Shown here: positions 14,645 to 44,643 of the stretch, piece after piece
How the letters are laid out: each line of letters begins with the position of its first letter
Position numbering within the stretch: position 1 is the stretch's first letter
Virus record (IMG/VR): IMGVR_UViG_3300035664_000005
Coordinates: 36,946 to 100,945 of that record
Strand: one strand, 5' to 3'
Length of the DNA: 64,000 nucleotides
Source of the DNA: a virus
The notes under the pieces: model-generated
Told to the model about the DNA's origin: nothing
Seen by the model: only the letters and a program-made list of their open reading frames with translations
The model's database searches: none
Position numbers and translations under genes: made by a program

Positions 14645-14648
14645 AGTA

Positions 14649-21316: not shown

Positions 21317-21464
21317 GTTGTTCACTCCTAGTGAATTGGATTTTGTTGGTGGTTACTTATTTTTTTATTATTAAGACTTCGGTAAGCACCTAGTCCAGTT
21401 ACATTTGCTGTATTACGAGAATAACATCAAAGTAACATTAAAAATGCAACCCCTTTTATTGGGT

Positions 21465-23981
21465 TTACTTTGCGTAGTGTCGTTTTACTACTCGTGGGCA
21501 ACATTTTTTGGCGTACTTGACTCCGTATTCGCCGTCGTCAAATCCTGCCCATTTTTTGGTTGTTTTTCGGTTCCGCCAAGGGTGGTCTAGTGGAAGTAGA
21601 TCATTGTCATCAAAATATTTGACATCTTTCGGTTTGTCTGACATCAATAGCGACAAAAACTTGGAAACACGCTTGTTCGCAGAGGTTTTGTCACCATCTT
21701 CAAGACCTCGCATATACACATTTTTGAGGTCTCGCAGGTTAGCCCGTTGTGAGGCTTTGGCTTTTGCGTTGTGCTGACGGACACGGACAGCAAGGTTATT
21801 GATATCGGTACTTGTCACGGTTGGTGGCTTCTTTTTGGGTTTTGGCACACCCTTAAAAGAAATCAGACCAGTCTGAGCAATTGAACTTTGAGCATCCTTT
21901 TTACCGAAACCCTTACGCTCTACAGATTTAAACTCATCCCCAAGATTCACTTCTTCTTTCCAGACAAAAACAGGAACACGGAAATCGGGGTGATTATCAT
22001 ATGCGGCTATAAGACGATGATGTCCATCATAAATGCTTCTCTTTCCGTCAGCCCATTCTCGCAATATTATTGGATAAAATACACCCTCTTGGCGAATACG
22101 CTGATTCATGCCACCAGAATTAATTCGCCGCTGATCCTCCAAATACTCCGCAGACTCACTGTCCAGTAACGAAAGATTATACGCATTCTCCGCAGGAAGT
22201 TTCATTAACTCGGCAGCACTGAATTCCTCGTCACCATGTCTTTCCGAACTTTTTTTAGGATCCAAAAAATCAGGATTCACATCAGAGCGCATCTTCTTCA
22301 GAGCCTCCGTTGTCAAAACATCGGGTAGTTTCACTACAGGGATTTTGTCTTCTCCACCAATAATTCCACCAGTTGTGAACCCGTCACCGTCACCGTCTTC
22401 ATTAGACCTACTACCAATTGGTGTACCCAAAACCTTTTTTCCAAATTTGGAACCCTGACGGCGAGGATTATTCCTAGGGCTGTTATCCCCTCGGATACCT
22501 GTTACACGGTTGTAGTCAGACACATTCGTGCAAGGCAACCAAACAAGTTTCCCGTCAGACGCCGTGTATCTGCGGATACCGATACAGCCCAAGTTTCTTG
22601 CACGGATACGGGCGGACTCTGCGTTGCTAAAAGTATCAGGGTCTGTTGAACGGCTAACAAAGTTAACAAAACCTTTTTGTTTCATTTTATTTTTAGGAAA
22701 ATGTCTCCCACCAGAAACATGGTGAGAACCACTTATTTCAAACAAGTTATCGTCGTCAGAAGTAACTATTTTCTCTTGCTTTGTATACAGAGCATCAAAC
22801 ATCTTCTTGATCATGTCATCTGGAAGCACCCCCGCTTTTTGTGGAGGAAAATCTCCTCGTTCAATCAAGAATGCGTTTTGTCCGCGTGTTTCCATCGCCA
22901 AAGCGCCGTGTACTTCAGCAGGTAAAGTCAATTTGTGTGCTTGGTACGCGGCTTCTTCACCGTGACGATCAAATCCGCGACCAGTCGCCAAATGACCCAA
23001 AACATCGTGCACCGCCCTGAACTTGTCATTGGTCGCGTCACTCCAATAAGGGTGAGATCCAGTCACTGAAGTTTTCATAACTTTCAGTCGTCGGTTCCGT
23101 ATAAAATCCTCGTGCATTTCATAAAATGATTTATACGGATCTTCATCAACGAATTCAAATTTGATACCCTGCTCTTCCAAGAATTTGAACTGACGGTCAA
23201 GTTCTCCCGCAAATTGGTCGTATGCTTTTTTTGCCTTCTCATCTAATACGGGCATACGGTCATATTGAGATACAATTTTTTTTCTTCTATCTGTATCTAT
23301 TCCGACTACTTCTGAGAAGTCTTGATCATCTAAGGTCGCTGAAAGTCCTTTAATTCGTTGCGCTAATTGCATTTCAACGCCTTCAGGACCTATCTTTTTT
23401 ATTTGTTCTAAAACAGTCCTTGCAATTACGGGAATTTTGTCTTCACCACGAGCGTTAGATGTAAAGCCGTCACCGTCGCCATCAATCTCCGATACACCAC
23501 CAATTGGGCGACCAACCGAAGTACCCAAAGCCTTTCCTGAGAAAGAACCAGTTACTAGTCCACCACCCGGCAAGGTGGCGATACCCGTAATGGGTTTTTC
23601 GTCAAGGTTCTCCCAACCCTTCTTCGGTGCCCGATGATTGCAAACAGCATAATACTTTTTCCCATCAAGCATGACGGTTCGTACACCACCACAACCACGA
23701 GCCTTAGAAATAGCAACCGCATCAGCACGATTCTCGTAATAGGCATCAGACTTTGTTTCCAAACGCTTGGTGCGTTGAACCATTTTTGGCAAAGGCTTCT
23801 TCTTCTTTGATGCAAGGACTTTTAGATATTCTTCTTCACCTTTTTTGATTGCTTCATACTCTTCATGCGACCCACAAGGCATCCAACCATTTTCGGTTTC
23901 ATGGGCGCCTTTGCATCCGAGCATACGTGCGACACGAAGAGCCTGTTCTCGTGTGGTCAAATCAGGTTTTTTATCGGTCAT
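21465..23981 (-). CDS. Modular head-region polyprotein (3x GCxG..PC module, 2x DGDGDG leader, HDxxGH domain, ParB-like domain)
   Basis: Repeats AR.LGC.G...MPC; FRAVHDVLGH...GEEAA; YPII....DGHHRLIAA. Confidence 0.75.
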   Translation of the reverse strand: MTDKKPDLTTREQALRVARMLGCKGAHETENGWMPCGSHEEYEAIKKGEEEYLKVLASKKKKPLPKMVQRTKRLETKSDAYYENRADAVAISKARGCGGVRTVMLDGKKYYAVCNHRAPKKGWENLDEKPITGIATLPGGGLVTGSFSGKALGTSVGRPIGGVSEIDGDGDGFTSNARGEDKIPVIARTVLEQIKKIGPEGVEMQLAQRIKGLSATLDDQDFSEVVGIDTDRRKKIVSQYDRMPVLDEKAKKAYDQFAGELDRQFKFLEEQGIKFEFVDEDPYKSFYEMHEDFIRNRRLKVMKTSVTGSHPYWSDATNDKFRAVHDVLGHLATGRGFDRHGEEAAYQAHKLTLPAEVHGALAMETRGQNAFLIERGDFPPQKAGVLPDDMIKKMFDALYTKQEKIVTSDDDNLFEISGSHHVSGGRHFPKNKMKQKGFVNFVSRSTDPDTFSNAESARIRARNLGCIGIRRYTASDGKLVWLPCTNVSDYNRVTGIRGDNSPRNNPRRQGSKFGKKVLGTPIGSRSNEDGDGDGFTTGGIIGGEDKIPVVKLPDVLTTEALKKMRSDVNPDFLDPKKSSERHGDEEFSAAELMKLPAENAYNLSLLDSESAEYLEDQRRINSGGMNQRIRQEGVFYPIILREWADGKRSIYDGHHRLIAAYDNHPDFRVPVFVWKEEVNLGDEFKSVERKGFGKKDAQSSIAQTGLISFKGVPKPKKKPPTVTSTDINNLAVRVRQHNAKAKASQRANLRDLKNVYMRGLEDGDKTSANKRVSKFLSLLMSDKPKDVKYFDDNDLLPLDHPWRNRKTTKKWAGFDDGEYGVKYAKKCCPRVVKRHYAK

Positions 23982-24235
23982 TTCTTCTTCTTCTTTTTCT
24001 TCTTTTCGCTCTCGGAAATGTATGGTGTAATCATCCCATAAGTTTTATGCATTTCATCAATCTTGTCTTGATTTCTCATAAGATAACTGACCATTGACTC
24101 AAGGTCACCGTCTTCACCATTGTCTTCGGCGAAACCGAACGCTGTAGCAATAATTTTTGAACGCGTATTAGCGTTTTTTACTTTTTTGTATAGTTCAACT
24201 TTTATCGCAGTTTTTTGTTTTTCTGTGAGTTTCAT
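23978..24235 (-). CDS. Small protein coupled to the 1443-aa GNAT-domain gene (candidate immunity/partner)
   Basis: 85 aa; ATGA overlap with the upstream stop; poly-Lys C-terminus. Confidence 0.55.
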   Translation of the reverse strand: MKLTEKQKTAIKVELYKKVKNANTRSKIIATAFGFAEDNGEDGDLESMVSYLMRNQDKIDEMHKTYGMITPYISESEKKKKKKKK

Positions 24236-27200
24236 GTCAGCCTCTTGTACCTTATCGCTCTATCTCTAAGCAAATTTTTTCTTCTTATATTTCGGTAAGC
24301 AGATTTCTCCCCAATTTTGTTGTCAGCGAAATTCAGGGCGGCACCCGAATATAGGGGCATGTGTTCTATGAACCAATGTTTTATGTAATCTCTACGGGCT
24401 TGTTCTTGGATACCACCAGAATCCATCATAAAGATTGCATCTTGGAGGGAAAGAGGTACACCAGATTTTTGTAGATCAACGAACGCTTTGACTCGTTGGT
24501 ACTCTTCATCCGTTGTAATTAAACCACTGCCACCCAAAACTTCATAAGTCCGCATTGCTGCTTTGAAGTGGCTCATCCTGTAACTATCTAGAGGTTCCTC
24601 GTTCTTAAACCCGACACGAGCCCAAATGTATTGTCCATCTTCCGCTGGACTTACTTGTGCTTCTTTAACCCCTATTTTTTCTAAATACCTGAAAGCAACA
24701 CCGTTATAAACTGTTGCCAATCCTGCTCCTTTGTCGCTATTTTTTGAAATGAAAAAACTTTGTTGATAGACGCTTGGTGGGTTTCCATTCATTTGTAATC
24801 TGCGTGTAGATGCCGCGATTCGCTCTCTCACTACCCTGCCGTCTTCATCTACTTCGTCAAACTCAACGTCAATAATTGTTTCATCAGGATTGTAGCGAAA
24901 ACGCTGCACTCGTGTCCTATAAAACTTCCCGTTTGCACCTACGATCTGGTCAAAGGTGTAAGCCTCTCGCAAATATCCCTCTTTTTGTTCGTTAGAAAGA
25001 GTCCCCCATTTTTCTGGTGTCATACGAACAAAATCAGGAAGCATATTGTTTGAATCTTCAGGATCGCCACCGTAATCAGGGAACTGAGATTCCAAATAGG
25101 TTTCAACCTCTGATGCACGTTTAGCAACTGCTTTTTCTATACTTGTGTCAATATCTGATTTAAGTTTTTCCGATGTTAGTTCTGGCGCTTCAAGTTCTTT
25201 AGGATCAACAAAGTATCCTTCCTGAAGTCTCAGAAGAGCCTTGTCAAAATCTTCTCTCAGTGAATTTCTTTGACGCATCCCGTGTTGTGCTTCGGCAATG
25301 CTAATTCTCGCCCTACCTATTTCACTGACAGCGCGGTTTATCGCTGAGGGTGACGGATTGTCCTCGTTTGATAATTTTTCAAGTTTTTCAACAGCATCTA
25401 AAATTCTTGCTCGCGCTTCTTCAATTCTAGCCAAATCGTCCGAGTCATTCCCATATCTGTAGTCGGCACGAATTTGTTCAACAGCGGCAGTGACATCTCT
25501 GCCGTCAGCAACTTGGGCTACACGTTGACTCAAATTATCAACATACGCCATTTCAAGTCGTTGTTGGGTTTCAGCAACATCATATTTGTTTTCATCAATT
25601 ACTGCAAGGACACCCGAAAGGTCTTTCACATCACTAATTTTTAGTACTGCTTGTTCCAAAAGTTTTTCTTCAATTGGATCCAACATTTTCTCAACTGGTG
25701 TGGGTCTATAGCGAAGTTGTTCAGGTGTACCTACGATTCCTTTTGGTTCCCCAACTTTGAATGCTTCCAATGGCGCCAATTTTCCTTCTTGGAACTCTTT
25801 TAAAAGTCTTTCTTCTAGTTTTACTCTCACAAGTTTTGCTTTTGCATCAGCAATATTTTCCAACTGTGCGCTTATCGGACTTTGAGTGCCGATATTTTGT
25901 TTCATGATTTCAAGTTGTTCTTTGATGGTGTTTTGATATGTGTCACGAAGAGATTCCGCTTGTTCAATCCTCGTAGCGATTTGGGCAGCGCCACCAAAAT
26001 CCCCATTAAACAGACCTGCGGTATAAGATCTTTCCCAGTTTACGAATTCATCAAGCCGTGTTTGCAGTTTTGTTTTATAAAGTTCTTTCGCTTGCAAATA
26101 CAAAATCCCGTTAGAGGAATCTAAGAGTTCATTAACATCATTATTTAATTCAGGATCATCAATATCGGCAATGGGCTGATCTGCACCAATTACTGCACGC
26201 ACAGGGACATCGGGTCTTGCTCCTTCAATACCGAAAGGGTTTTGTTGTATGACCGCGTTGATGACACGGTTTTCTTCATACATTCTTTCTCTGCCCTGTA
26301 TCGCTAACACCAGTTTTTGAATTGCTCGTTGACGTTCTTCACCTTCTAACGCGTTGAGCAATTCTCGTTTCGCGTCGCGTATTTGATTATTGAAATCGGA
26401 TGCTTTTTCCGAATTAGATGCAATGATTTGATTGAGTGCTTCAATATCCCCGTATATGCCGTCCTGCAATTGGGCTGAATTGTATATTACAGGGTTTTGA
26501 TTTTTTGCAATTTGATATTGCGAATTGATGGTATTAACTTCGGAATAATTTAGATCTTCAATGATTTTAAATTCTTCAGCAAGTTTTGGATCATTAAAAC
26601 GGCGCGGTCCTGCTGGTTGTGGTTGTGGTTGTGGTTGCTTATCTAGGGGATCGTTAACCAAGTTGCGTTGAGGTACGGGTCTGCGGCGCCATTCAATATT
26701 TGCTTCAATTTCTAATTGACGCATTTCCATCTGTTTTATTTTTTCATCAGACCCTTGTTGTGCCGCCCACGCGATCAGATACCTGTCACGCACCATGTCT
26801 CGTGCGCGTCCTCCGTTTTCTGTTCCCAAGTCTCGTTGAAGATTTAACCACGAGTCTCCTGCGTCCCTCAACCTTTTTTCAAGGGTCACCTGTAATCTTT
26901 TTTCTCTTGCCAATAGATCTTTAAGTTCGTCTAAGTTCGCGGAATTAAAATTCTGCATATTGTCGTAATTGTTGATTATGTCAAAATTGACGTTATTGAG
27001 CGCATCATTAATTTTTGCTTGATCTCGGTCTTCTTTGAAAGTTGCCTCAGGAACAAGGTACCCTCTTCTCATTGCGGGTGGTAAAAGGTTCGGTCTTGGC
27101 GGTGGAGGCTGAGGTACATCTCGTCCTTGTTCCACAATGGAAAGCGGTGTCAATTCTTCGGGGTTCGGTTTTCTTCTCTTCGGTTTATTTTCTTCTGCAT

Positions 27201-28563
27201 CAAGTCTGCGAAGTTCCTGAAGATCTGGTTCTAGTAAATCAACTTCTGGTTTTGGGCGGCGAGGTTTTACTATTTTTGGTTTGTCTTTTGCGGGTTTATC
27301 CTTACCTTCTGCCCTCAATTTTCTAGCGGCTTGCTCTCTTAATAGGAATTGGGTTCTTTCCCTGCTGACTCCGCCCTTTTTTCTTAATTCAGTTTCTATT
27401 TCTTGATCAGTCATATTCCGAATTCCCTCAGGGATCGGTTGTAGATCAACTTCATTCATCCCTTCAAAATTCACGGGCGTTATTTCTCGTTGCTCTTCCC
27501 GACGCGTTGGTGCTTTTGGTTTCTGAGTCGCTTCAACGACAGCACGACGACGACGGCGAGCAGGGGCTTCACCAGTTCTTGGCGCGCCGGGTTGAACGAG
27601 TTCTCGTTCCATTCTTCGCGCTTCTGAATCGCGAAGGTTTCCTCGTCGGCGTTGGGGTGGTTTTTTACCCCTACGGTTCAATTCTGCGTTAACTTTATCT
27701 AGCCGTTGCTTTGCGGTTAACCTTTGCGCGCTTACGGGGAGCATGCCAATCATGCCATCATCGCGAGGTTTATCTACTGCGTCTCGCAGTCTTTCAACCG
27801 ATTCCTGTGCATCTTGGTACTGTTTCTCTAAATCCTCGTCACTCATGGTGCGAAGGTTCTCTACATATGGGTCTTTGTCATCTCGTCTTGGAAGTGCAGG
27901 GGTATCACGATTTGGAATCGGACGAGTAGGACGAACAGGTGTTTCGCCAGTACGCGGTGCACCCGGCTGTTCAATTTCGCGATCAATTCTTCGTTGCTCG
28001 GATTCCCGTAGGTTCGGTGCACGCCTTCTGCGTGGAGCACGAGGAGCAGGAGTTAATTCGTTTGGTGCTTCGGGTGTGTCAACCGATGGTGGTCGTGCGA
28101 CAACAGTTCTGCGACGTTGCCCAACGAGACCTCGCGCAACGTTTCGCAGACCCCCTGTTTCTCCTCCTTCTAATCTTTCTGCAATACCTCGCAATCCCTG
28201 TTCAAGACGACCAGAACCTCTGTCTTGTGGGTTTAAGCGATTGAGAATTCTGCGTTCACGACGAGCAATACGCTCTCCTCTACGGACATCATCAACATTT
28301 TCTAACCGCTGACCGATGTCCGAAATTTGGTTGGCAATTCTTCTTGCAACACCCCAACCGCAAGACCTACCGAAACGGTCTGTGATTTGTCCGCCATATC
28401 GTGTCCCAACAGGGCAACGCCATCCGCCCCTTCGGTTAGTTCCGGGGATAGACAAACTCGGATCCCACAAAGCGCGGACTGACTTAACTTCGTAAGCCAT
28501 TGTTGACGTGTTTCTTTCACTAAGAAACGACTTGGCTTTAAAATCAACAATGTTTTGGAGCAT
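24232..28563 (-). CDS. Large paralogue 1: RCP module + Arg/Pro linker + coiled coil + C-terminal GNAT-like domain
   Basis: WDPSLSIPGTNRRGGWRCPVGTRYGGQITDRFGRSCG; C-terminal KGAGLAT...GV..A...A.DGQYIWARVGF resembles GNAT motifs A/B. Confidence 0.7.
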   Translation of the reverse strand: MLQNIVDFKAKSFLSERNTSTMAYEVKSVRALWDPSLSIPGTNRRGGWRCPVGTRYGGQITDRFGRSCGWGVARRIANQISDIGQRLENVDDVRRGERIARRERRILNRLNPQDRGSGRLEQGLRGIAERLEGGETGGLRNVARGLVGQRRRTVVARPPSVDTPEAPNELTPAPRAPRRRRAPNLRESEQRRIDREIEQPGAPRTGETPVRPTRPIPNRDTPALPRRDDKDPYVENLRTMSDEDLEKQYQDAQESVERLRDAVDKPRDDGMIGMLPVSAQRLTAKQRLDKVNAELNRRGKKPPQRRRGNLRDSEARRMERELVQPGAPRTGEAPARRRRRAVVEATQKPKAPTRREEQREITPVNFEGMNEVDLQPIPEGIRNMTDQEIETELRKKGGVSRERTQFLLREQAARKLRAEGKDKPAKDKPKIVKPRRPKPEVDLLEPDLQELRRLDAEENKPKRRKPNPEELTPLSIVEQGRDVPQPPPPRPNLLPPAMRRGYLVPEATFKEDRDQAKINDALNNVNFDIINNYDNMQNFNSANLDELKDLLAREKRLQVTLEKRLRDAGDSWLNLQRDLGTENGGRARDMVRDRYLIAWAAQQGSDEKIKQMEMRQLEIEANIEWRRRPVPQRNLVNDPLDKQPQPQPQPAGPRRFNDPKLAEEFKIIEDLNYSEVNTINSQYQIAKNQNPVIYNSAQLQDGIYGDIEALNQIIASNSEKASDFNNQIRDAKRELLNALEGEERQRAIQKLVLAIQGRERMYEENRVINAVIQQNPFGIEGARPDVPVRAVIGADQPIADIDDPELNNDVNELLDSSNGILYLQAKELYKTKLQTRLDEFVNWERSYTAGLFNGDFGGAAQIATRIEQAESLRDTYQNTIKEQLEIMKQNIGTQSPISAQLENIADAKAKLVRVKLEERLLKEFQEGKLAPLEAFKVGEPKGIVGTPEQLRYRPTPVEKMLDPIEEKLLEQAVLKISDVKDLSGVLAVIDENKYDVAETQQRLEMAYVDNLSQRVAQVADGRDVTAAVEQIRADYRYGNDSDDLARIEEARARILDAVEKLEKLSNEDNPSPSAINRAVSEIGRARISIAEAQHGMRQRNSLREDFDKALLRLQEGYFVDPKELEAPELTSEKLKSDIDTSIEKAVAKRASEVETYLESQFPDYGGDPEDSNNMLPDFVRMTPEKWGTLSNEQKEGYLREAYTFDQIVGANGKFYRTRVQRFRYNPDETIIDVEFDEVDEDGRVVRERIAASTRRLQMNGNPPSVYQQSFFISKNSDKGAGLATVYNGVAFRYLEKIGVKEAQVSPAEDGQYIWARVGFKNEEPLDSYRMSHFKAAMRTYEVLGGSGLITTDEEYQRVKAFVDLQKSGVPLSLQDAIFMMDSGGIQEQARRDYIKHWFIEHMPLYSGAALNFADNKIGEKSAYRNIRRKNLLRDRAIRYKRLT

Positions 28564-28832
28564 TACTCCCCGATTTTTGCTTTGGCGATCGCTAAATTGT
28601 CCTCAGAGTATGACATCACTTGATACTCAAAACGAGAAGCAGACTTAATCCACCAACTAACAGGGTCAGTTATTTTACCTCTTTTTAATGCGTCGCCGTA
28701 ATCGCTTTTAGGGTCATCAATGTATTTTTGGATTTGTTTACCAGTTTCACCAGCACCAAAAATCTCTACATCTTTTCCATCGCACGAAATACCAAAATCG
28801 TGATTTGTTACTATCGCTATTGATGCTTTCAT
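28563..28832 (-). CDS. Small protein after kinase paralogue 2 (candidate immunity/partner)
   Basis: 89 aa; directly downstream of the 1084-aa gene. Confidence 0.55.
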   Translation of the reverse strand: MKASIAIVTNHDFGISCDGKDVEIFGAGETGKQIQKYIDDPKSDYGDALKRGKITDPVSWWIKSASRFEYQVMSYSEDNLAIAKAKIGE

Positions 28833-28850
28833 AAAGTTTTTTCCATTTCT

Positions 28851-31800
28851 TTAACGAAGAATTTCATTCATCAGACCGTCAACGAATCTTGTGTCACCCA
28901 ATTGAGCCAAGTTATACTCTAAATTCTCGCGTCTTTCAGTTTTCATCGTGTCTTCCACCGCATCATAAACAGCGTCAACTTGATCCAATTGATCAAAAGA
29001 ATCTGCTATTGCTTTTCTTGCTGTGGCTATAGTTTCTTGAAGTTCTTTCTTAATCGCTTGCGTTTCTCGTATCTTGTCTTGACCTTGTAAGCCACTCAAA
29101 CGCTTCTTATACCCCTGCCAAGGTCTTGGATCCATACCGTGAACAAATCCAAAATAATTTACCAATTCCGCTGCTGTTTTTCTTTCAAATCTTGCCCGAC
29201 CGAAATCTAAAGGAACCGCACCGTTGCCCGCAAATAAATCTCCATTGCCAGCGTGCCTATCTCTCACATCCATTATCGCATTAAGTATCCCATTGAATAA
29301 TCGCGACTGAGGGTCGGTTATTTTGCTCGGATCATAACCTCCTGCGAGTTTACCGTCGGAGTTATTTAAAAAAATGTCCATCAAAAGGAAAGGACCTGTA
29401 TCATCTCCGCCTGCGATTCTTGGTGATCCGTTTGCAAACCCAAGATTTTTGGCAAGGATGTTCCCAATGACTTCTGCGTGCTGAGATCCAGAATTGCCGT
29501 CGTTGTAGGCGTCGTCATAGTCTTCGTCGCCAAATTTTAGAAAGTATCCTCTGCCCCATTTTTGTGGGTTTTCATCAAGCAACAAAAAGTATTGCGGACT
29601 TGTAATTCCAGAACCAACAGGCATTTTGACAAAGTCAATCCCATTTTCTTTCAGTGCCTTAACTAGGGCAATGTTTTCTTGAATTCGCTGTGGGGGCAGT
29701 GCACCTAAACCTGCTTGAACATCTGTGCCTATTCCTCTTCGGACATCAATGGTTAATTTTTCTAGTTTTGCACCAATTTGAGCGTCGTCAAGATTTGGGA
29801 AAACTTTCAGTACAGCATCTCGTATTTCTGGAGTGAGCCCTCGGCGATCAGCGAAGTTTGCTGTACGGGCTTCCAGTGCATCTAAGATAAAGTCGTCTGG
29901 AATATCTGCCAACGAACCTTTATACGCTTTTGCTTCATCTACAGTGTTGATTCCTTTGTTGCCTACTGGCACTGAAACAAATTTTCCGTCTTTGGGTTGA
30001 AGTTTTGGCATGGCGGTCTCGTGGTTGTCCGCAAGGTTGTTCATTTTTAATGCTGGTGTGTTTCCACTTTTTGGGTTTGACGGTGTTGGCGTCGGCGCTT
30101 TAGATGTGGTTGATTTCGCATTTACCGCTTGTCGGAGTTTTCTGTGTTGTTCGCTAACTTTTCGTAAATCATCCATCACACCGACATCAGGACGCTGCCC
30201 CATTTGTCGTATTAATTTTATCTGTCCTCTTTTGTCATCTTCAATGCCTTCTACAAGACTAATCAGGTCGCTCAATTCGGTTTTTGAAACTGCTTTTGGT
30301 TGAAGCAAAATTGCTTTAACCTGTTTGTCAAATTCTTCACCCCACACATAGTTTGGGTCGCTCTTTATTTGTTTGATTGCTTCAGTGACAGCATCGCGAG
30401 CGGCTTTTTCTTCTGTGACTTTGTTTCGTTTATTCCGTTTAACTGGTTTTGCTGGCGCTGGTTCGGGAACGTCGTCAGGTGTTGGTTTGCGTGTTGCGCT
30501 ACGACCTGCACCTTGTGCCGTTGCTTGTCTGCGACGACCACGATTGTTTCGCGGACGACGAGGTTTTGGTGTTGGTGGTTCAAAATCTTGTGGTGCGTTA
30601 CGTCCGTGAGCATTTTTCCAAGCGTCACGAAGATTAGATTTATTGATTGCGTACCATTCACGGCGTGTCAGCATTCCAGCGTTTCCGCCACCTTCACGAA
30701 TTTCACGAACGCGTTTTGCGTACTCGTCATATTTTCGTAATACGTAAGGTTTGAAGTCTTCTGATGCTAAGGCGTCTGATGCGTCTCGTGCTGTGAGTAC
30801 ATCAACATTTTCTGCTTGTGGTGCAACGCGTGGGCGTGCCTGTGGGCGTTTTCCTGCTGGTGCTGGTCGTTTCGTAGGGCGTGGTTTCGGTGCAGGATTG
30901 TTTCTACCGTTCAAAAATGCTTTACCCGCCGTCGTTACCTCTAGGGTGTATTTTGCTCTGTCGGGATCAAAAACCCCACCTGCTGGAGTGTCGTTCTTTT
31001 TTTTACGAAGGAAACCTTTTTTGACTAATCGTTTAATGATTGGTTCATCTTCCGTAGTGACGCCTACCCAATCGTCCCAAACAGCACCAGTCCCCCCGTC
31101 GGGATGTGCTTCAAGAACGCGTTGTAGAAAATCTCGGTCTTCCTTTTCTTCGCGCAGATTTTTTTTCGGTGCCTTTGGCGTGGGCGCTGTTTCAGGGATT
31201 ACATCACGACGCCTATTACGAGGAACTCGTGCTGGAGATTCTGCTTCAGGCATAGTCTCTGTGACTCGCCTTTTTGGAACCCGTCGTTGCCCAACAAGAC
31301 CGCGTGCGACATTTCGCCAACCGCCGTCAATGTCATTTGCTTCTGCAACTCCGCCACGACCTACTTGTGGTTTTGGTGCATCCCCGCCTTCAAGACGCTC
31401 AGCGATACCGCGTAAGCCTCCTTCAACACGACCAGTCTCAGGAACTCCGCCAAGCCTTCTCATCATTCGTGCATTACGACGATCAAGACGACGCTTCCGT
31501 TTGTCATCATCTCGTTGTTCTAGTCGTTCACCGATATCTGCAATTTGGTTTGCAATACGGCGTGCTATACCCCATCCACATGAGCGTCCGAACCTGTCGG
31601 TGATTTGTCCGCCGTATCTTGTTCCTACAGGGCAACGAAAGCCCCCACGACGATTAGTTCCGGGTATAGAAAGACTTGGATCCCAAATAGCGCGAACACC
31701 TTTGATTTCAAAATGTGCTGATGAACGAGTTTGATCCGATATGAAAGAAGACGCTTTGAAAGTAAGAACATTTTTGAACTCCTCATTAGAAAACTCAGAC

Positions 31801-32105: not shown

Positions 32106-32183
32106 TGGGTGCTTTCCATGATCGGGAAGGGTTTAACAGACCTTCTATACCGTGTAGTGGTATCGCCTATCAAATATTAGCAC

Positions 32184-32510
32184 TTATTTTGCTGAGTATT
32201 TTTTGCTGTATTCATCTATTTCTGCCACTAATTCGTTGACGCGATTTTTAGGCACATCCTCATTGGTGACAAATTTATAATCCTTTGGATCGCTTTGTGA
32301 ACCTCTATGGTCTAAAAGGCTGACGACCATGCCCTTATCCTCAAACATTCCCGCATTATTAGGGTTGTCTGAGTGTGTTCGGATGCGGAGACCGTTGTGT
32401 TTGGATGCCCTAGAGACTTTGTACCAAATCCATTTATTTTCATCATAATGGACGACAAGTTGGTGCAACTCTGTCTGAATCCGTGACTCGTAAGTTATTG
32501 GAAAACCCAT
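32184..32510 (-). CDS. Small protein after kinase paralogue 3, with its own leaderless promoter
   Basis: 108 aa; TAGAAT (32522-32517) sits 6 nt before the ATG. Confidence 0.6.
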   Translation of the reverse strand: MGFPITYESRIQTELHQLVVHYDENKWIWYKVSRASKHNGLRIRTHSDNPNNAGMFEDKGMVVSLLDHRGSQSDPKDYKFVTNEDVPKNRVNELVAEIDEYSKKYSAK

Positions 32511-32532
32511 AGTTATATTCTACCTTCAGACA

Positions 32533-35046
32533 TTAAAAGTTCCCCGTCATTTGATCTAGATTGGCTAAACCCCAAGCAATTCGTGCTTCAGCCACCCTTC
32601 TAAGTTGAACCAAATGATTTTTTTCCGAATCCGACAACTTAATACCGTTAGCCTCAATTCGTTCAACGCTCAACTGTTCGTCCAATCTTTCTCTAATTCT
32701 CTCAAAAGACCTACGCATTGTCTTTTTATAAATATTCCGATCACGATCATTCTGAAATTCGTAGCCCAAACTTTCTAATTCGTCAAACGGATTATTGGCA
32801 GGCTCGTCCATATAAGCCCTCAAACTTGGATCAGCAACAACGAGGTCTGCGGAGTCTCTCACCCACTCATCAAATTCTTGTTCGTCATAGTTGGGGTTTG
32901 GAACTCTCCCACCGAACAACATGCCATTGTCAATAATTGCCAAACGGACACGTCCGCCTTGTTCTGTCATCAAGAAATTACCACCGTGTCTATCTGTGTT
33001 GCCAAACACAAAGTCCATCGCCAATATTCTTGCCGAGTCGCGCGGGTTGATTTTTTTGGCTTGGGCTTCAGTCATCATGCCTGCATCACGCCATTGACCC
33101 TGAACACCATTTTCCCATTGTGCAACATCCCGCATCATCATCCATCGTTTTGGTGGTTGACCAGAAACAGAACCTACCCTTAAATGGTTTTCATTATTAC
33201 CGAACTCTAAATCTTGAGCGACTCGCATTCCAACGTTTTCTAGTAAAGCGTCGTTCCTTCCGTATGTTGAAGTTTTCAAATACCAAACTTCTCCATTAAT
33301 TTTGTCCGTAACTCTAAACACTTGCCACGGACCTGGAGCAGCCCAATTTTTGTCTGCTATTAGTTTAAATTTGTACCTTCTATTTTCAAACTGAGATCCC
33401 TCACCTTCATCAAAACCTTGATCTAGTTTTTCGGCAATTTTTGCATCGGTGAACAGCAATGGACGACCATTCGCATTTAACTGCTTGAACTGACCATCAA
33501 AAACCGCTTCAATAACTACGCCATCTGGAACATCTGCAAGATTTCCGTTATCTTCGTGAAGAAGTTTTACGGCTCTTTGTAGGTCAGCCTCTTTCCCGTA
33601 TCGGCGAGGTGTTCTGCCACCTTTACCAGCGTCAGCATCAGGGACAACCCTTGAAGCGGGCAAGGAGTCTAAGGGTTCAGGAGTTGGAGGTGTTGGTGGT
33701 GTCTGAGGTGTCGGAGGTGTCGGTGAACTTGTGTTTTCGTTATTTCCGTCGCTTAGATCCAAAAACTGTTGACTAAAATCGCGTAAGTAACGATTCAGTG
33801 ACGCTTGACCCTGTGGACCTCGGTACTCTTGTTCTAGCGCGTCACCATCAACGATATTTCTGGCTAGGAAACCACGAAATTTTCCGCTTTCTTGTGGGAG
33901 TAGTTCAATTTCCCAGTTTCCCTTTTTCCATTTCGTTGAACCATCAGGTTGGTTAATAGCATCCCAACCTTCTCCACCGAAATCTGGCATTTTCATATTT
34001 GCCTGTGCTGTTGGTGCTTTAGGTGGTTGACCGGGTTTGTTGTCTGGGTTTTTTATTTTTCTGTTGACATAATCTCCTCTGTTATTGAGGTATCCGTCAT
34101 TGTCGTAATAGCGTCCAAATCTTCTTTCAAGTTCTGCTTTTTCTTCACCTTCAGGGAAATCTGCTTCTCGCCAATAAGCGTTATCGGGAAGACCTCGTTC
34201 ACGGAAACGATTACGCACATTTCTGATAGAACGCTCATCGGGAAGACTGCTACCGATGTCCACAGCAGATGATGGGTCGGCAACAAAATCTGGGTCTGCT
34301 TCAACAACCGTTGGGCGAGGCGCAGATGGTAATTTTCTTGTTGGCACTTTTGTGGGTTTTGGTTTATCGCCGTCTACAAAATCTGCTTCTGGTTTTCTGC
34401 GTGCAGTTCGTTTTGCCCCTTGTTGGGCAGCCGTTCGCCGACGTCGTCTTTGCTTGTTCGGTTTTGGTGGTTCTCCCGTGCGTGGGGCACCCGGTTCTAC
34501 AAGTTCTCTTTCCATCCTGCGTGCTTCTGAGTCACGAAGGTTTCCTCTCCTACGAGGCGTTTTCTTTCTCTTGGGTGCGTTTGGTTTTGGTGGAATTGTT
34601 GTAGGAGATTTTGGACGAGCCGATGGTTTTATTTGTCGTGGCTTCTGTTCGCCGTCAAGTGCTTCAGCGATGTTTCTCGCTCCACGTTCAAGTAAGCCGG
34701 GTTTTTGTTGTCTTGCCAAGAAGCGTTGCATGCGAGCATTTCGTTTAGCAAGACGATTATTGCGTTTGCGATCGTCAATGTTTTCTAACCGTTCGCCAAT
34801 GTCTGCGATTTCGTTGGCGATTCGTCGCGCTACTCCCCAACCGCAAGAACGACCGAACCTGTCAGTTATCTGACCTCCGTAACGAGTCCCCACAGGACAA
34901 CGCCAACCGCCACGCCGATTAGTTCCCGGTATAGACAAACTTGGATCCCACAAAGCACGAACACCTTTTACTTCGTAATTAAAAGTGCTTGCTGTTTGTT
35001 CTGAGATGAAAGTCAAAGCCTTGAAGTTGACTTCGTTTTTTTGCAT
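32533..35046 (-). CDS. Large paralogue 3: RCP module + C-terminal HipA/PI3-4-kinase-like domain
   Basis: Shared RCP module; WYLK, LLENVG, DFVFGNTDRHGGNFL, AIIDNG. Confidence 0.8.
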   Translation of the reverse strand: MQKNEVNFKALTFISEQTASTFNYEVKGVRALWDPSLSIPGTNRRGGWRCPVGTRYGGQITDRFGRSCGWGVARRIANEIADIGERLENIDDRKRNNRLAKRNARMQRFLARQQKPGLLERGARNIAEALDGEQKPRQIKPSARPKSPTTIPPKPNAPKRKKTPRRRGNLRDSEARRMERELVEPGAPRTGEPPKPNKQRRRRRTAAQQGAKRTARRKPEADFVDGDKPKPTKVPTRKLPSAPRPTVVEADPDFVADPSSAVDIGSSLPDERSIRNVRNRFRERGLPDNAYWREADFPEGEEKAELERRFGRYYDNDGYLNNRGDYVNRKIKNPDNKPGQPPKAPTAQANMKMPDFGGEGWDAINQPDGSTKWKKGNWEIELLPQESGKFRGFLARNIVDGDALEQEYRGPQGQASLNRYLRDFSQQFLDLSDGNNENTSSPTPPTPQTPPTPPTPEPLDSLPASRVVPDADAGKGGRTPRRYGKEADLQRAVKLLHEDNGNLADVPDGVVIEAVFDGQFKQLNANGRPLLFTDAKIAEKLDQGFDEGEGSQFENRRYKFKLIADKNWAAPGPWQVFRVTDKINGEVWYLKTSTYGRNDALLENVGMRVAQDLEFGNNENHLRVGSVSGQPPKRWMMMRDVAQWENGVQGQWRDAGMMTEAQAKKINPRDSARILAMDFVFGNTDRHGGNFLMTEQGGRVRLAIIDNGMLFGGRVPNPNYDEQEFDEWVRDSADLVVADPSLRAYMDEPANNPFDELESLGYEFQNDRDRNIYKKTMRRSFERIRERLDEQLSVERIEANGIKLSDSEKNHLVQLRRVAEARIAWGLANLDQMTGNF

Positions 35047-36765
35047 CTACTTTTTCTTTCGTTGCTTTGCCAGATCGGGCTTGATGAATGTCTCATATAG
35101 CCATCGTGGAGCGGTTCGTTTTACACCGTCGGCGCCTGTGTATTCCACGAGTGCCAATGCATCAGGAATGTTTCCCGTATCAGCAATAAATTTGAATGCA
35201 CCTTCAGAATTTTTTGCGAAGTCTTCAATATTTTTGATGATGTTGTCTTTGGTGCTTGATTCTGCAAGCGAGTTAATCATCCGTGGGAATTTGCGTTTTT
35301 CACCAATTGTGAAGGGTCGCGAGCGTTCAATGCTGACCGTTACACCGTTTGGAGCGACGAAAGCGATCTTGCTCATTGACGGACCACCAAGAAGCGCTAA
35401 ATCGTCTGCGCCTATGTCGGCAGGTAATTGAATGGCGCGAACCATCGCACCGTCAACCATGTCAGGGTTTTCACTGAATGAACGAAGAACAGATGAAGGA
35501 ACAACTGGTCGTAGAATTACGCCGTCTCGTCGGATCATTCGTCCTTCGCCTGCTGGCGCACCTTTAAGCGTTGATATTGACTGCCGAACCGAAGCGTTGA
35601 ACTTATCTTTTTGGAAAGCGCCAGTTCGTGGGATTTGTGCCATGCGACTGATTTGAATTGTTCGCGCATTACTTGGGTTTCCCTCTAATACTTCTGAAAG
35701 ATTTTCGGCTCTTGCTTGCGGAAGTTTCGGTGCCGCTGTCGGGCGCATTGCTCGTCTGATTAGTTCTAACGGACCTGGTATTTCAAATAGTTGTGCACCG
35801 CAAGTAGAGAAACGGTTGTCTGTGAATCGTCCACCAAATTCAAAACCAGCAGGGCATCGTGCTTGACGCTTACGATTTGGCTTCAACCGACTGAGAGCAC
35901 CTTGTCCCCCGCCCGGTATTAGCGCACCGTAAACGCGTGAACGAATCGGAGAAGTCAGAGGGGAGATGTTTCCGGGTGTTAACGCTGAACCAATGCCTTG
36001 CAATGCTCTTCCTGCACCTGAACTAGAACCAACCAATCCTGCTTTTTCTTCTAAACCTTCTGAGTCATCTTTACCTACTCGGTATCCACCGCCACGCTTT
36101 TTGTATTCACGAACAAGCCAAGCATTCGCATATGCAGATGGATAAACATTAAATTTCTTTTTGGCTTCCGCTTTAACTCGTGCATAAAGTTCGGGGTCTG
36201 TAGGGATATTTTCACTTTTTACTGTGAATTCATCAGACTTAATTGTGGACACATTGATTGGTTTCTTGTCTTCACGGGTTTGAGAGTTTTCGGCTCGTCG
36301 TTTCCTGTTTACGGCGGAAGCAATTTGCTCGGGGGTCATACTCATCGCTCTAGACTTTTTCACACATTTTGGATACTTACCTGAATTTGCGTCCTCACGA
36401 CCGCAAGACTCAAAGCCTCCACCCTTTTTAGGGCGAGAGATGTCAACCCATTCTTCTTCAAACCATTTTCCTAAGCCACCGCGTTTTGTTTCATCGCCGA
36501 TAAAAGTCTCCGAACCCAACCGTGATGTCCGTGATTTTACATAAAGAGTTGCTTTAAAGTTGAGCAAAGACCTGTCACCGTTTAACGGTGTTTTTCTAAG
36601 CGCTGAACCTTTGGTGAAAATAGTTTTTCTTTTTGAATTTGATGGGTCAAAATAGGTTTCGTTGCCTAAGACAATGTTGGTTCGTTTTAGTAAGGTTTTT
36701 TCGCGAACAGATATACGAAGTTTCCGAGCAAAGTATTCAAAGTTTTGGTTGAGATAGTTACTCAT
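35047..36765 (-). CDS. Modular head-region protein with a divergent RCP module
   Basis: GGLGKWFEEEWVDI module, PTDPELY...PSAYA..YKKRGG module, RCPAGFEFGGRFTD..CG. Confidence 0.7.
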   Translation of the reverse strand: MSNYLNQNFEYFARKLRISVREKTLLKRTNIVLGNETYFDPSNSKRKTIFTKGSALRKTPLNGDRSLLNFKATLYVKSRTSRLGSETFIGDETKRGGLGKWFEEEWVDISRPKKGGGFESCGREDANSGKYPKCVKKSRAMSMTPEQIASAVNRKRRAENSQTREDKKPINVSTIKSDEFTVKSENIPTDPELYARVKAEAKKKFNVYPSAYANAWLVREYKKRGGGYRVGKDDSEGLEEKAGLVGSSSGAGRALQGIGSALTPGNISPLTSPIRSRVYGALIPGGGQGALSRLKPNRKRQARCPAGFEFGGRFTDNRFSTCGAQLFEIPGPLELIRRAMRPTAAPKLPQARAENLSEVLEGNPSNARTIQISRMAQIPRTGAFQKDKFNASVRQSISTLKGAPAGEGRMIRRDGVILRPVVPSSVLRSFSENPDMVDGAMVRAIQLPADIGADDLALLGGPSMSKIAFVAPNGVTVSIERSRPFTIGEKRKFPRMINSLAESSTKDNIIKNIEDFAKNSEGAFKFIADTGNIPDALALVEYTGADGVKRTAPRWLYETFIKPDLAKQRKKK

Positions 36766-37075
36766 TTTGTGAAGATTCTTTCGGATTTACGATTTCTGCT
36801 ATTTCTGACGGCAGTTGAGTTTTCCATTTTTTAGCCAGCAAATCTAAAAGGTACTTATTTTCATCATTTAAAAGATTCGTGCTTATATCATAATACGACA
36901 TTTTTGAGGTGGCTTTTTCAATAGTCATTTTTCCTGTTGAAACAAGCCCTACATATATGGTTTCGGCAAGTTTCTTGTCAGGGCACATCACCGCAAAGAT
37001 TTTGGAGTCCTTTTCAAAAAGAACATACGGGGAGCCACTAATACCCACGCTTGGGGCGATTACCGCATATCTCAT
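36758..37075 (-). CDS. Small protein after the stand-alone kinase-like ORF (candidate partner)
   Basis: GGAGG RBS before MRYAVI; 105 aa. Confidence 0.55.
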   Translation of the reverse strand: MRYAVIAPSVGISGSPYVLFEKDSKIFAVMCPDKKLAETIYVGLVSTGKMTIEKATSKMSYYDISTNLLNDENKYLLDLLAKKWKTQLPSEIAEIVNPKESSQNE

Positions 37076-37076
37076 A

Positions 37077-37838
37077 CTATTCCCCCTCCAAAAGCCTGTG
37101 GAGAACAGTGTCATTGGGGGGCGCAGACTCAATCATCATGTCAACCAATTTTTTAACTTCAATTCTTTGAATTTCCATCAGCCTTTTGGTGGCGTTGCTT
37201 ACTTCTTTCTTGATTGCATACAGTTCTTTTACTTGTTTATTGGAAATTGATTTCATGTCAAAAAGTTTTGGGTCATCCACAATGCCGTCTAGTTCTTTGA
37301 TTAAGTTGGCTCCCAAAGAACTAGGGTCAATTTTTTTTAACTCTTTAAGGGTTTCTTCCGCGATCTCTATGAGTTTGGTGAAATTACTTTGACTACGACC
37401 ATGTCTTTTTTGTAGTTCCGTGTTGACAAAAGAATTGCGGTACGCCTTGACGACCTGTTCTAACGAAGTGTCTTCCATGTTGAAAGGCTGAAGAATTGAG
37501 TCGTGATCAACAGGGATGACATCAACACCTTCAGCGTTTTCGCTTAACAAAAAATTGCTTACATCCCTTTCCCCGTTCAACATCACCACATCCATTAAAT
37601 GCATGTAAAGCAATTTGTCGCTTTGCACGGCTTCCAAGTTGTCTGGCGTTGTCTGTTTTATTTTGCCATCATAAGAATCAATTGATGAATCAGCCATAAT
37701 TGAGATTAGACCTTTTTGAGGGTCAAGTTTCATAACTCGCAAAGCAGACGACGGGTATCCAAACTCTTCCAAAATTACATGACCTAAAACTTCAGATAAA
37801 GGTTCATACCATTTTGATTTAATTACTTTGTCGTTCAT
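37077..37838 (-). CDS. Stand-alone HipA/PI-kinase-like domain with a degenerate active site
   Basis: SEVLG...FGY, DVVMLNGERDVSNFLL, IPVDHD (compare DRHGGN and IDNG in paralogue 3). Confidence 0.65.
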   Translation of the reverse strand: MNDKVIKSKWYEPLSEVLGHVILEEFGYPSSALRVMKLDPQKGLISIMADSSIDSYDGKIKQTTPDNLEAVQSDKLLYMHLMDVVMLNGERDVSNFLLSENAEGVDVIPVDHDSILQPFNMEDTSLEQVVKAYRNSFVNTELQKRHGRSQSNFTKLIEIAEETLKELKKIDPSSLGANLIKELDGIVDDPKLFDMKSISNKQVKELYAIKKEVSNATKRLMEIQRIEVKKLVDMMIESAPPNDTVLHRLLEGE

Positions 37839-40162
37839 GGCTTCAACTTTACTTCTATTGGATAGATACCTTGCTCTTTGATGTCATCCAACTTGGTTTG
37901 GATGTTTTTGACAAGATCTTTCATATGATCAGAAAACTCTTCGCGCGACATAGGCGATGCATCTCCCGGTTTATATGGGAATGGGTCTACGCCAACTGTT
38001 TTACCTTTAATACCCAAACTTTCTTGAAACACTTTCGCCATAGCGAGAGCCTCGGTGATCGTTCCTTGATACTCCACGACATTTAGCGTTAGTTGCTCGT
38101 CCGCTGGTAAATGGTCATTCGCTAATTGAATAGCAGCCCATCTGTGGTGACCATCAACTACATATCCATCACTTGAAGTCAAAATCGGGCTCTTCCACCA
38201 TGCGGCTTTGGATTCCTTCAACCATTTTTCCCGCGCGGCAGTCCACTCGGGTGTTCCCTTCTCTCCCCACTCTTTTCTGGCAGTCTCGTAAGCCGAAAGT
38301 ATTCCTTCTGACTGCCCATCAATTTGCGCGTTCTTCAATTGATTTTGCGATGCGAACAGAGTTTTTGGATCCTTTGCTTTGGTCTGTAAAGCATTCTCTG
38401 GATCGGGATGTGTATCTTCCAAGAATTGAAATAATTCTGGTTCTGTTTTAACTTCCGTGGAACTCCAATTAGTTCTTTCAAAAACCCATTGTTTATCTTC
38501 TTCGGAGACATCTCCAAATGTTTTAGGTTTGTTCAACTTGTTTGAAAGATCTTTATATTTGTCTATATCTTCTTGACTAGTGAGTTTCTTTGGTTTAAGT
38601 TCCCCTTCAATAAGACCCGACTGAAACGCACGCATAGCGGGAGTGTCCGCCCCTTTTGTCGCCCCACCGCTTTGAGGCATGTTTTGACGCTGAACACCAA
38701 TGTTTTCGTTGCAAAACAAATTCTTTGCAGAGTAAAGACGGCATAGGTCAATATCGTGTGTTTCTTCAAAGTTTTTGAGCCAAGCCGCTTTTTCTTCTGG
38801 TGTGATGCTTCCAAGTTTTTCCAACTCTTCGGCTCGTTGCGCTCCTATATCTTTTATTTCTTTTTCCATTTGCTTGGCACTGTTTTGCACCAATTTTTGT
38901 TGACCGTCATCAGGGATTTCAACTTCGTAACCTAAAGCCAACAAAGCAACAGCCTCTTCAACATCGTCTGTTTGATAGATCGGATTGTCGGAAAGTACAC
39001 TCTTTTTGCCTGACCGCGTAACTCCGTATTTATCCAACAATTCCGCATCGCTCAAATCGTGAAGTTTGCCAGAACCCATCCCGTCATCAAGCAAAGTTCG
39101 CAACTTTGATGCCGCCCCCTGAGCAACTAATTTTTGGGTATCTTCTCTGCCGAAACTTTCATTTGAATATTTAATAGTAAAAAGTTTGCCATTTTCCCTA
39201 TCCCTGAGACGACTTGTTCTTCCCTCATGAACAACTTCAAACCGACCAGTCTCAAGAACATTTCCGTCTTTATCTTTTTTGTCCATGTTGTCAAGAACTG
39301 CGTTCAAAATTAATTCGTCGGATATCTCGTTTAAAGGTTTACCGTTTTTAAGATGATCTGCCGCTTTTTCTGCGGTATCTATATCTTTGTTTACGGTTGG
39401 GAGATCGTGTGAAACATTTTTCCCATTTATATCCGCAGCGCCAACTGAAAATTCGTTGTCTTTTGATTTAGCGACTTTGCTTCTACCAAGATTGAACCCA
39501 CTCCTTGACTTGCGCTTGCCCATATTTTTTTCTTTATTCTTATTCATGGACGCAATAAAGGCTCTAGCGTCAACGGACGAGTTTGATTTAATTCTTTCCG
39601 CTATTGCTTCTAATTGTTCTTTTCTTTTATCCGAAATTTTTCCTCGCTTATGAAGCGAATCAACCGTAAAATCAAGCACATCAGCGCCACCAGAGTTAAA
39701 CAAAGAAACTGCCAACAAAACGCTATCTGTAATAGACCCCTGTCCGTCACCATACGAATAGTCAAACGCCTGCAAAGCAATTAATGATGCTGTTTTTGCG
39801 GATCCTTTAACATTTTTATCCGCCAAAATCCCTCTAGCACCATCCACTAATTTGTCCATCATTTTCGCTGCACCCCTAGCGACCTGAGATGCGTCAGGGA
39901 CAAGACAGTTAGACATTTGCATGTCGGTAAATTGGTTTGCGTTTGGAGTACCGGGTGGACACCTTAATTTTCCTGCTGCGTCAACAATGACACCAGCGGC
40001 ACGAGCGGCACGTGTACCAACAGAATTCAAAGAAGGATTATCTTTTATGGTCGGTCCGAGATAACCCTTAAATAGAAGAAGGTTGTCCTGAACGACGGAA
40101 ACAGATTTTCGGTATTCTGCGACTCTTTCGTTTGCGTCAAAAGCGCGAGACGATTTAATCAT
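37835..40162 (-). CDS. Large paralogue 4: divergent RCP module + shared helical module + C-terminal ParB-like domain
   Basis: KLRCPPGTPNANQFTD..SNC; PILTSSDGYVVDGHHRWAA. Confidence 0.7.
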   Translation of the reverse strand: MIKSSRAFDANERVAEYRKSVSVVQDNLLLFKGYLGPTIKDNPSLNSVGTRAARAAGVIVDAAGKLRCPPGTPNANQFTDMQMSNCLVPDASQVARGAAKMMDKLVDGARGILADKNVKGSAKTASLIALQAFDYSYGDGQGSITDSVLLAVSLFNSGGADVLDFTVDSLHKRGKISDKRKEQLEAIAERIKSNSSVDARAFIASMNKNKEKNMGKRKSRSGFNLGRSKVAKSKDNEFSVGAADINGKNVSHDLPTVNKDIDTAEKAADHLKNGKPLNEISDELILNAVLDNMDKKDKDGNVLETGRFEVVHEGRTSRLRDRENGKLFTIKYSNESFGREDTQKLVAQGAASKLRTLLDDGMGSGKLHDLSDAELLDKYGVTRSGKKSVLSDNPIYQTDDVEEAVALLALGYEVEIPDDGQQKLVQNSAKQMEKEIKDIGAQRAEELEKLGSITPEEKAAWLKNFEETHDIDLCRLYSAKNLFCNENIGVQRQNMPQSGGATKGADTPAMRAFQSGLIEGELKPKKLTSQEDIDKYKDLSNKLNKPKTFGDVSEEDKQWVFERTNWSSTEVKTEPELFQFLEDTHPDPENALQTKAKDPKTLFASQNQLKNAQIDGQSEGILSAYETARKEWGEKGTPEWTAAREKWLKESKAAWWKSPILTSSDGYVVDGHHRWAAIQLANDHLPADEQLTLNVVEYQGTITEALAMAKVFQESLGIKGKTVGVDPFPYKPGDASPMSREEFSDHMKDLVKNIQTKLDDIKEQGIYPIEVKLKP

Positions 40163-44552: not shown

Positions 44553-44643
44553 GATGCTCCAAAAATGTTTGTTTATTAACAATAAACTATTTAGGGCACC
44601 AAAAAAGGAACACTTTCAGTATATAGGGGGTATTTTACTGAAA

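Follow-up and report, generated by a model that had tools for sequence, protein, structure and literature searches.

The stretch of viral DNA analysed here (64,000 nucleotides, 'the window') is the final 64 kb of a 100,945-base contig in IMG/VR (IMGVR_UViG_3300035664_000005, estimated completeness 71%). The head operon of the window lies on the minus strand and contains an array of five large proteins, denoted slots A to E, between the prohead protease (42414–44582, Pfam Peptidase_S78 7e-11) and the HK97-type major capsid protein (20006–21325, Pfam Phage_capsid 2e-44), which is where a preliminary description of the sequence had located it. Each of the five carries a Cys-pair module, or the core of one, followed by a C-terminal domain, and several are succeeded by a small open reading frame (ORF). 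The gene order in relatives is protease, ~490 aa (amino acids), ~85 aa, A, small, B, C, small, D, small, E, small, F, capsid protein, and it is kept down to loci with a capsid protein 60–74% identical to that of the window.

The module is found in full in slots C, D and E (837, 1084 and 1443 aa), where it spans 81 aa at 34783–35025, 31518–31760 and 28300–28542 respectively (minus strand). The three ORFs and the copies of what had been described as a near-identical module of ~80 aa were all recovered, with pairwise identities of 79–85% in protein, 69–73% in DNA and 42–46% at third codon positions. Searching the contig with one module returns the other two strong copies (E-values 3e-50 and 4e-49) and the copy in the 572-aa slot B protein (5e-4). 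In a module tree that includes the relatives, the copies cluster by array slot and not by genome. The high protein identity against the low third-codon identity, together with this grouping by slot, indicates that the likeness is kept by purifying selection; recent duplication or gene conversion was considered as its source and is ruled out by the 42–46% third-codon identity and by the slot grouping in close relatives. Over 70 non-identical copies there are 23 invariant columns, both cysteines among them, and conservation extends ~60 residues beyond the 81-aa core.

Two divergent versions of the module had also been proposed, in slot B (572 aa) and slot A (775 aa). The core motif is indeed present in both (35797–35859 and 39905–39964, minus strand), but the full 81-aa module is not. 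A profile built from the strong modules only gives E-values of 0.018 (slot B) and 0.29 (slot A), and profile–profile comparison (hhalign) of their orthologue sets with the strong module gives probabilities of 97% and 85% over 47 and 28 columns, the sets having been chosen for containing RCP, which favours a match somewhat. Since the divergent copies are weak by the strong-module profile and match over those columns only, what is in common is a short core: judged by these profiles, the 572-aa and 775-aa proteins have just ~28–47 aa of the form RCPxG...(I/F)TD...C.

The hidden Markov model (HMM) of the module gives E-values of ~1e-47 and, run against 1.84 billion representative proteins at E ≤ 1e-3, matches 328 protein clusters; the best 150 of these are nearly all large proteins (~800–4500 aa) with the module near the N-terminus. 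In IMG/VR the profile identifies 63 distinct loci, related viral contigs with the same gene order, which form the comparison set used throughout. No family in Pfam, PHROG, NCBIfam or PADLOC corresponds to the module; the 50,697 deposited phage records contain no match to it, and it was absent in two scans of 185,579 prokaryote species genomes; the ESM Atlas and PDB sequence profiles gave nothing usable. As far as the searched collections show, the module is confined to uncultured phages.

The C-terminal domains of slots C and D are PI3/PI4-kinase-like by sequence, with catalytic motifs intact. The slot C protein (32533–35046, minus strand) consists of the module, a basic Pro-rich linker and a kinase-like C-terminus (~32536–33555, subtype CT5) that matches Pfam PI3_PI4_kinase (2.9e-8, 34.4 bits, cut-off 27.1) and has the catalytic loop DRHGGN. 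The slot D protein (28851–32105, minus strand) has a 115-aa N-terminal extension before the module, a basic linker and a kinase-like C-terminus (28854–29873, subtype CT6). It has no Pfam match of its own and is assigned through its BLAST linkage to the slot C kinase and its motifs: K113, DRHxxN and DFGR are invariant in eight orthologues. All eight kinase subtypes in the loci (8/8) keep the DRHxxN and DxG motifs. Of the earlier HipA/PI-kinase label, the second half is the one supported by Pfam, as PI3_PI4_kinase; no HipA family appears at E up to 0.01 in Pfam scans, and the kinase domains may be remotely related to HipA within the same fold. When the PDB was searched with profiles from the kinase alignments and the GNAT alignment, the rows obtained were at chance level only.

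The slot E protein (24232–28563, minus strand) has a ~1000-aa linker between the module and a GNAT-fold C-terminus (24235–25224). This domain has no Pfam match; its AlphaFold2 model has a pLDDT (predicted local distance difference test) of 89, and GNAT enzymes make up most of the top Foldseek matches (best E-value 3e-4). In VIA-align, each of the 50 rows shown appears to be a GNAT-type acyltransferase domain, at middling Z-scores of 6.6–7.6 over 100–145 residues. Among the GNAT-fold matches are protein lysine acetyltransferases as well as toxins that acetylate tRNA (TacT, AtaT and KacT), and the alignment of the domain has a conserved GA(D/G) loop. By motif and model, the enzymes of the array look active. 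An HDAC-family deacetylase (14592–15620, plus strand, Pfam Hist_deacetyl 7e-19) is encoded in the same genome as the GNAT-fold protein; the 187-aa ORF preceding it has no Pfam match.

The slot A protein (37835–40162, minus strand) shares its residues 1–334 with the slot A kinases of relatives; its C-terminal ~440 aa are an inserted segment ending in a domain for which there are weak but concordant hints of a ParB/Srx-like fold. These are a PHROG ParB-like match (7.6e-5), a DGHHR motif and matches to PDB chains named 'free serine kinase' (E-values 0.2–0.3), which we take to be of ParB/Srx fold; there is no Pfam match. The slot B protein (35047–36765, minus strand) is without a small partner gene and contains DUF5872 twice (Pfam 3.7e-15), the core motif and a C-terminal region of 243 aa that is 79–98% identical in the closest relatives and received no family assignment from domain-library searches. 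In deposited phages, only its DUF5872 part has matches, these being small hypothetical proteins from phages of Pelagibacter and Synechococcus; the kinases and the GNAT domain have no match there. When the alternative C-termini of relatives were compared with Pfam, the only matches were one weak kinase match and DUF3626 in locus L026. The DUF3626 domain (1.9e-10) lies in the slot A protein of L026 and L027, and the family includes the Salmonella type III effector SopF (PMC6682159). One enzyme domain is recognisable per module protein, the linker regions not having been searched by fold.

Small ORFs of 85–108 aa had been listed after the GNAT gene and after all three kinase-domain genes, the third kinase being a 253-aa ORF without module (37077–37838, minus strand), here called the orphan. 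They are present at 85 aa after slot E (family s1, 23978–24235, start overlapping the stop of the upstream gene), at 89 aa after slot D (family s3, 28563–28832) and at 108 aa after slot C (family s7, 32184–32510, in the fetched loci only after CT5-type kinases), all on the minus strand. The partner of the orphan (family s0, 36758–37075, minus strand) departs from this range as listed (124 aa, TTG start) and is probably 105 aa long, starting from the ATG at 37075, which matches its orthologues. Across the loci the small genes fall into ~20 families with no detectable kinship between them; a search for a common origin gave 44% probability for the best pair (s0 against s2). The family of the small gene goes with the C-terminal subtype rather than with slot or N-terminal architecture: the adjusted mutual information (AMI) between small-ORF family and C-terminal subtype is 0.84, against 0.28 with N-terminal type. 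Family s1 follows the E-type (GNAT) C-terminus in 25 of 25 cases, four of which have that end on a D-type N-terminus, and s0 is found behind related kinases of slots A and C. The HMM search and the tabulation of C-termini and downstream ORFs that the preliminary description had called for thus yield 328 clusters, 63 loci and covariation of C-terminal subtype with small-gene family.

Comparison of close relatives shows that a C-terminal domain and the small gene following it behave as a unit replaced by recombination. A translated comparison of the window with locus L013 gives blocks of 83–89% identity alternating with unalignable blocks, each of which is exactly one C-terminal domain plus its small ORF. 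In loci L005–L023 the module is 91–98% identical, while the C-termini are 25–52% identical or of another subtype. Among phages with a capsid protein 87–97% and a slot B protein 81–98% identical to those of the window, slot C is occupied by CT2 or CT5 and slot D by CT4, CT6 or CT8, in four combinations, and slot A has no fewer than eight different ends. The C-terminal types do not agree with the module trees; the slot D module of the window is closest to that of L013, yet the slot D kinase of L013 is of a different subtype. The GNAT domain diverges fast, at 35–45% identity where the module is 93–98% identical.

A displaced unit is seen in slot A. The slot A kinase of locus L032 (617 aa) aligns with residues 1–334 of the 775-aa protein of the window at 59% identity, and its residues 371–613 align with the 253-aa ORF at 38% identity (E-value 4e-56). 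In the window and in L025, the ~440-aa segment ending in the ParB-like domain has been inserted, and the kinase domain now lies downstream with its s0-type partner, which is homologous to the 105-aa ORF that follows the slot A kinases of L007 and L032. These alignments show that the displaced older unit survives as an orphan at 36758–37838. The orphan kinase remnant has a weak Pfam PI3_PI4_kinase match (1.3e-3) and the catalytic loop ERDVSN instead of DRHxxN. Joint replacement relative to L013, the AMI of 0.84 and the orphan bear out the suggestion that C-terminus and adjacent gene form a cassette, and we regard the cassette with its cognate partner as likely. The exchange is confined, though: 'swappable enzymatic C-termini', as the preliminary description had it, captures the conserved front and the varying ends but overstates the range. 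Among the best 150 module proteins there are 73 kinase subtypes, 52 GNAT-like ends, 10 of B type, one giant form and 14 fragments without a typed C-terminus, so that the strong module carries almost only two enzyme classes. On present sequences the exchangeable repertoire is narrow, with kinase subtypes at two positions, mixed domains at slot A only and two positions fixed. Invariant C-termini in homologues, which had been named as evidence to look for against exchange, occur by type in slots B and E and do not occur in slots A, C and D.

Co-folding of a C-terminus with its small ORF, also proposed earlier, supports a direct interaction for slot D. The kinase domain and the 89-aa protein gave an ipSAE (interaction prediction score from aligned errors) of 0.77, 0.76 and 0.77 in three runs, and the best of three controls gave 0.00; the mark applied to this score is reached by 58 of 80 solved complexes and by 2 of 110 mismatched pairs. 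Contact agreement between runs is ≥ 95% and the pLDDT of the partner is 90. The confident kinase contacts are K113, D205, H207, N210, D223 and R226, which belong to the catalytic loop and the DFG motif or, in the case of K113, are the lysine that binds ATP. In the model, the 89-aa protein would thus bind across the catalytic cleft of its own kinase. The same model brings hydroxyl residues of the 89-aa protein, among them the invariant Ser64, close to the catalytic loop, as might be expected if the small proteins were dedicated substrates, activators or folding/loading chaperones of the C-terminal enzymes and not inhibitors. Type III secretion provides a precedent, small effector-specific chaperones being encoded beside their effector, and the GNAT partner is better conserved than its enzyme. 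We consider such roles quite unlikely, however: mutually unrelated, strictly subtype-specific small families are typical of immunity proteins, and the wide predicted interface over the Lys, DRHxxN and DFG residues resembles occlusion.

The linkers of slots C and D are basic (pI ~10; 10.1 in slot C), contain 9–12% proline and are probably disordered, whereas the C-terminal domains are acidic. In the linkers there is also a recurring linear motif, NLR(D/E)SE..RR..RE...PG.PR(T/S)G, with Arg runs on either side (27550–28015 and 34470–34545, minus strand); the 1443-aa protein has two copies and the 837-aa protein one. Of the 157 distinct module proteins of the loci, 26 contain this motif, and no other ORF does; it could be a binding or processing site. 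Inspection of the protease, capsid and cargo sequences gave no basis for calling prohead-protease cleavage sites.

Our best explanation of the array, to which we give a probability of roughly 0.55, is that it encodes cargo-like proteins within the head-assembly operon, each combining an N-terminal Cys-pair module, a long basic proline-rich linker and a C-terminal enzyme. The small proteins would hold the enzymes silent in the producing cell, while module and linker would bring them into the procapsid; at the next infection the enzymes would exit with the DNA and modify host proteins so as to take over the host, counter its defences or compete with related phages. Capsid loading and ejection are in line with the constant position in the head operon, the tag on otherwise unrelated payloads and the basic disordered linkers; for packaging and injection taken by themselves we judge the odds to be about even. 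More tentatively, module and basic linker may be a general loading and ejection tag of this group of HK97-type phages, such that whatever enzyme is fused to it would enter the capsid and reach the next host; the cognate small proteins may be active-site plugs that are left behind, and the rapid exchange of kinase–plug pairs may reflect an arms race in which host defences or related phages are the opponents.

The cognate pairing and the predicted active-site binding suit toxin–antitoxin logic equally well. The array could then consist of late-expressed kinase or acetyltransferase and inhibitor pairs that are never packaged and act in the producing cell, modifying phage or host proteins or working between co-infecting phages in the manner of toxin–antitoxin systems, with the module serving oligomerisation or binding to DNA or membrane. 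This would be in keeping with the searched deposited phages, which have no module, kinases or GNAT domain, and with a virion association that is itself deduced; the HDAC-family deacetylase of the same genome hints at regulated modification cycles in the infected cell. We nevertheless find a purely intracellular role unlikely. In all relatives, even deeply diverged ones, the array is flanked by the protease and capsid genes; loaded proteins would be expected to have long, basic, disordered linkers and to share an N-terminal tag on otherwise unrelated cargo; and the absence of the module from 185,579 prokaryote genomes argues against a general cellular toxin–antitoxin part.

Location in the head operon, the large size of the proteins with their basic linkers, and a slot B protein that is highly conserved and has no enzyme assignment would also be compatible with structural head components (internal core, scaffold or DNA-condensing proteins), in which the enzyme-like domains are inert and the small ORFs are assembly factors. 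This is very improbable, given that the catalytic motifs are intact in all eight kinase subtypes and lost in the sole displaced copy, and that replacement of whole domains between near-identical phages is unexpected of structural parts.

The phage itself looks like a lytic phage of Actinobacteria. Its capsid protein is 47–49% identical to capsid proteins of Brevibacterium and Gordonia phages, there are two WhiB genes on the contig, a marker of actinophages (PMC10202952), and a tyrosine integrase was looked for on the ~71% complete contig and not found.

Several points weigh against loading and injection of enzymes kept in check by cognate inhibitors. The module, the kinases and the GNAT domain occur in no cultured phage that was searched, and the presence of array proteins in the virion is deduced. 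For a lytic phage the need for immunity is less obvious than for a temperate one. The covariation counts are drawn from related genomes and are not independent events, the informative cases being those in which the same pair occurs in differing N-terminal contexts. The GNAT partner is more conserved (55–66%) than the GNAT domain (35–45%), unlike the usual immunity protein, and slots B and E have a single C-terminal type in every locus. The co-folding alignments have eight rows each, and a small protein bound at an active site could, on the same model, be a substrate instead of an inhibitor. The AlphaFold2 model of the module (70 sequences), a helix, a hairpin and a long helix, is of low confidence (pLDDT 60, predicted template modelling score 0.27).

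By analogy, the logic of the array is that of polymorphic toxins, and within phages it is closest to MuF toxins and polyvalent proteins. MuF polymorphic toxins (Jamet et al., 2017; PMC5576092) likewise sit in the head/packaging module of tailed phages, with a conserved N-terminus, a variable toxin-like C-terminus and a small downstream gene; delivery with the phage DNA has been proposed for them, and they are tied to temperate phages of Firmicutes. The proteins described here are not MuF toxins because the carrier differs: it is a Cys-pair module that belongs to no known family, and all five module proteins lack a head-morphogenesis (MuF) match in Pfam or PHROG. The MuF-like region of this phage is fused to the 736-aa portal protein (44644–46854, minus strand), whose residues 474–734 match PHROG 'head morphogenesis' (MuF/SPP1 gp7-like) families, in agreement with the non-MuF carrier already proposed. 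Further differences are the number of paralogues, four or five consecutive ones against a single MuF protein, and payloads that are for the most part PI3/PI4-kinase-like; no integrase was found, and the module is absent from the bacterial genomes searched.

Polyvalent proteins of phages and conjugative elements (Iyer, Burroughs, Anand, de Souza and Aravind, 2017; PMC5512222) are similar in being large phage proteins with kinase, GNAT or ParB-type domains that are read as early effectors entering with the DNA, and cassette-like small ORFs have been noted near those that bear kinases. They contain 2–15 effector domains per chain and their kinases are of a truncated Ser/Thr/Tyr type; the array proteins are not polyvalent proteins because they have one enzyme per chain, in two slots PI3/PI4-kinase-like. 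Polyvalent proteins also have no common N-terminal tag and no cognate downstream partner.

In bacterial polymorphic toxins (contact-dependent inhibition (CDI), Rhs and others) the C-terminus and the immunity gene are exchanged together, and orphan cassettes occur. The array resembles them in that the C-terminal domain and the downstream gene are swapped as a unit, a displaced older C-terminus is kept with its partner and the partner families are mutually unrelated. It has their conserved N-terminus with C-termini that vary in close relatives, their co-varying small downstream gene and a displaced cassette. It differs in being phage-encoded, in a head operon, without a secretion-system domain, and in a diversity that consists mostly of subtypes of one kinase fold instead of many toxin folds. 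The internal proteins and Alt of phage T4 are enzymes and basic proteins loaded into the prohead by an N-terminal capsid-targeting sequence and injected with the DNA. If the array proteins are loaded, the N-terminal tag on enzymes and basic proteins would be a shared feature. The T4 tag, however, is a short peptide removed by the prohead protease, whereas the conserved part here is ~80–150 aa, and T4 cargo is not known to have partner genes.

Should the tag and plug roles hold, lytic phages of abundant lake Actinobacteria would possess an equivalent of the polymorphic toxin delivery known from bacteria. Packaging, if it occurs, would make the array a modular means of bringing protein-modifying enzymes, in a set that can change, into hosts on a carrier domain absent from databases, with cassette exchange in the style of polymorphic toxins operating in lytic phages of uncultured freshwater Actinobacteria. 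Atypical kinases with dedicated active-site binding partners would then join the tools of phage take-over and counter-defence, and the module would be a candidate tag for loading foreign proteins into capsids.

Upstream of the array, the prohead protease (722 aa, minus strand; PHROG head maturation protease 1e-29) is extended at its C-terminus by a long segment that includes a Cys/His-rich stretch (GGFRRC...ICAWLHHE...GCHH, residues ~380–445) with no Pfam match. Between the protease and the array lie, on the minus strand, a 492-aa PepSY protein, an 88-aa ORF and, directly before the array, a 2OG-Fe(II) (2-oxoglutarate and iron-dependent) oxygenase of 140 aa (40172–40594, Pfam 1e-9). At the other border, protein F (838 aa, 21465–23981, minus strand) is without the Cys-pair module and has DUF3721, a phrog_3170 domain (2e-41) and a weak ParB-like region; it contains two DUF3721-like Cys motifs and two DGDGDGF peptides. 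Its position, directly before the capsid gene, is taken in relatives by unrelated proteins of 275–877 aa.

In a distant phage group (loci L061–L067, capsid protein 60–62% identical) there is one giant protein of 2400–2540 aa. Its downstream neighbours are as in the other loci, ORFs of ~500 aa and of 433 aa, the second being as long as the capsid protein; the giant protein contains two module-like motifs at residues ~240–270 and ~600–650, with a kinase-like end in some of the loci.

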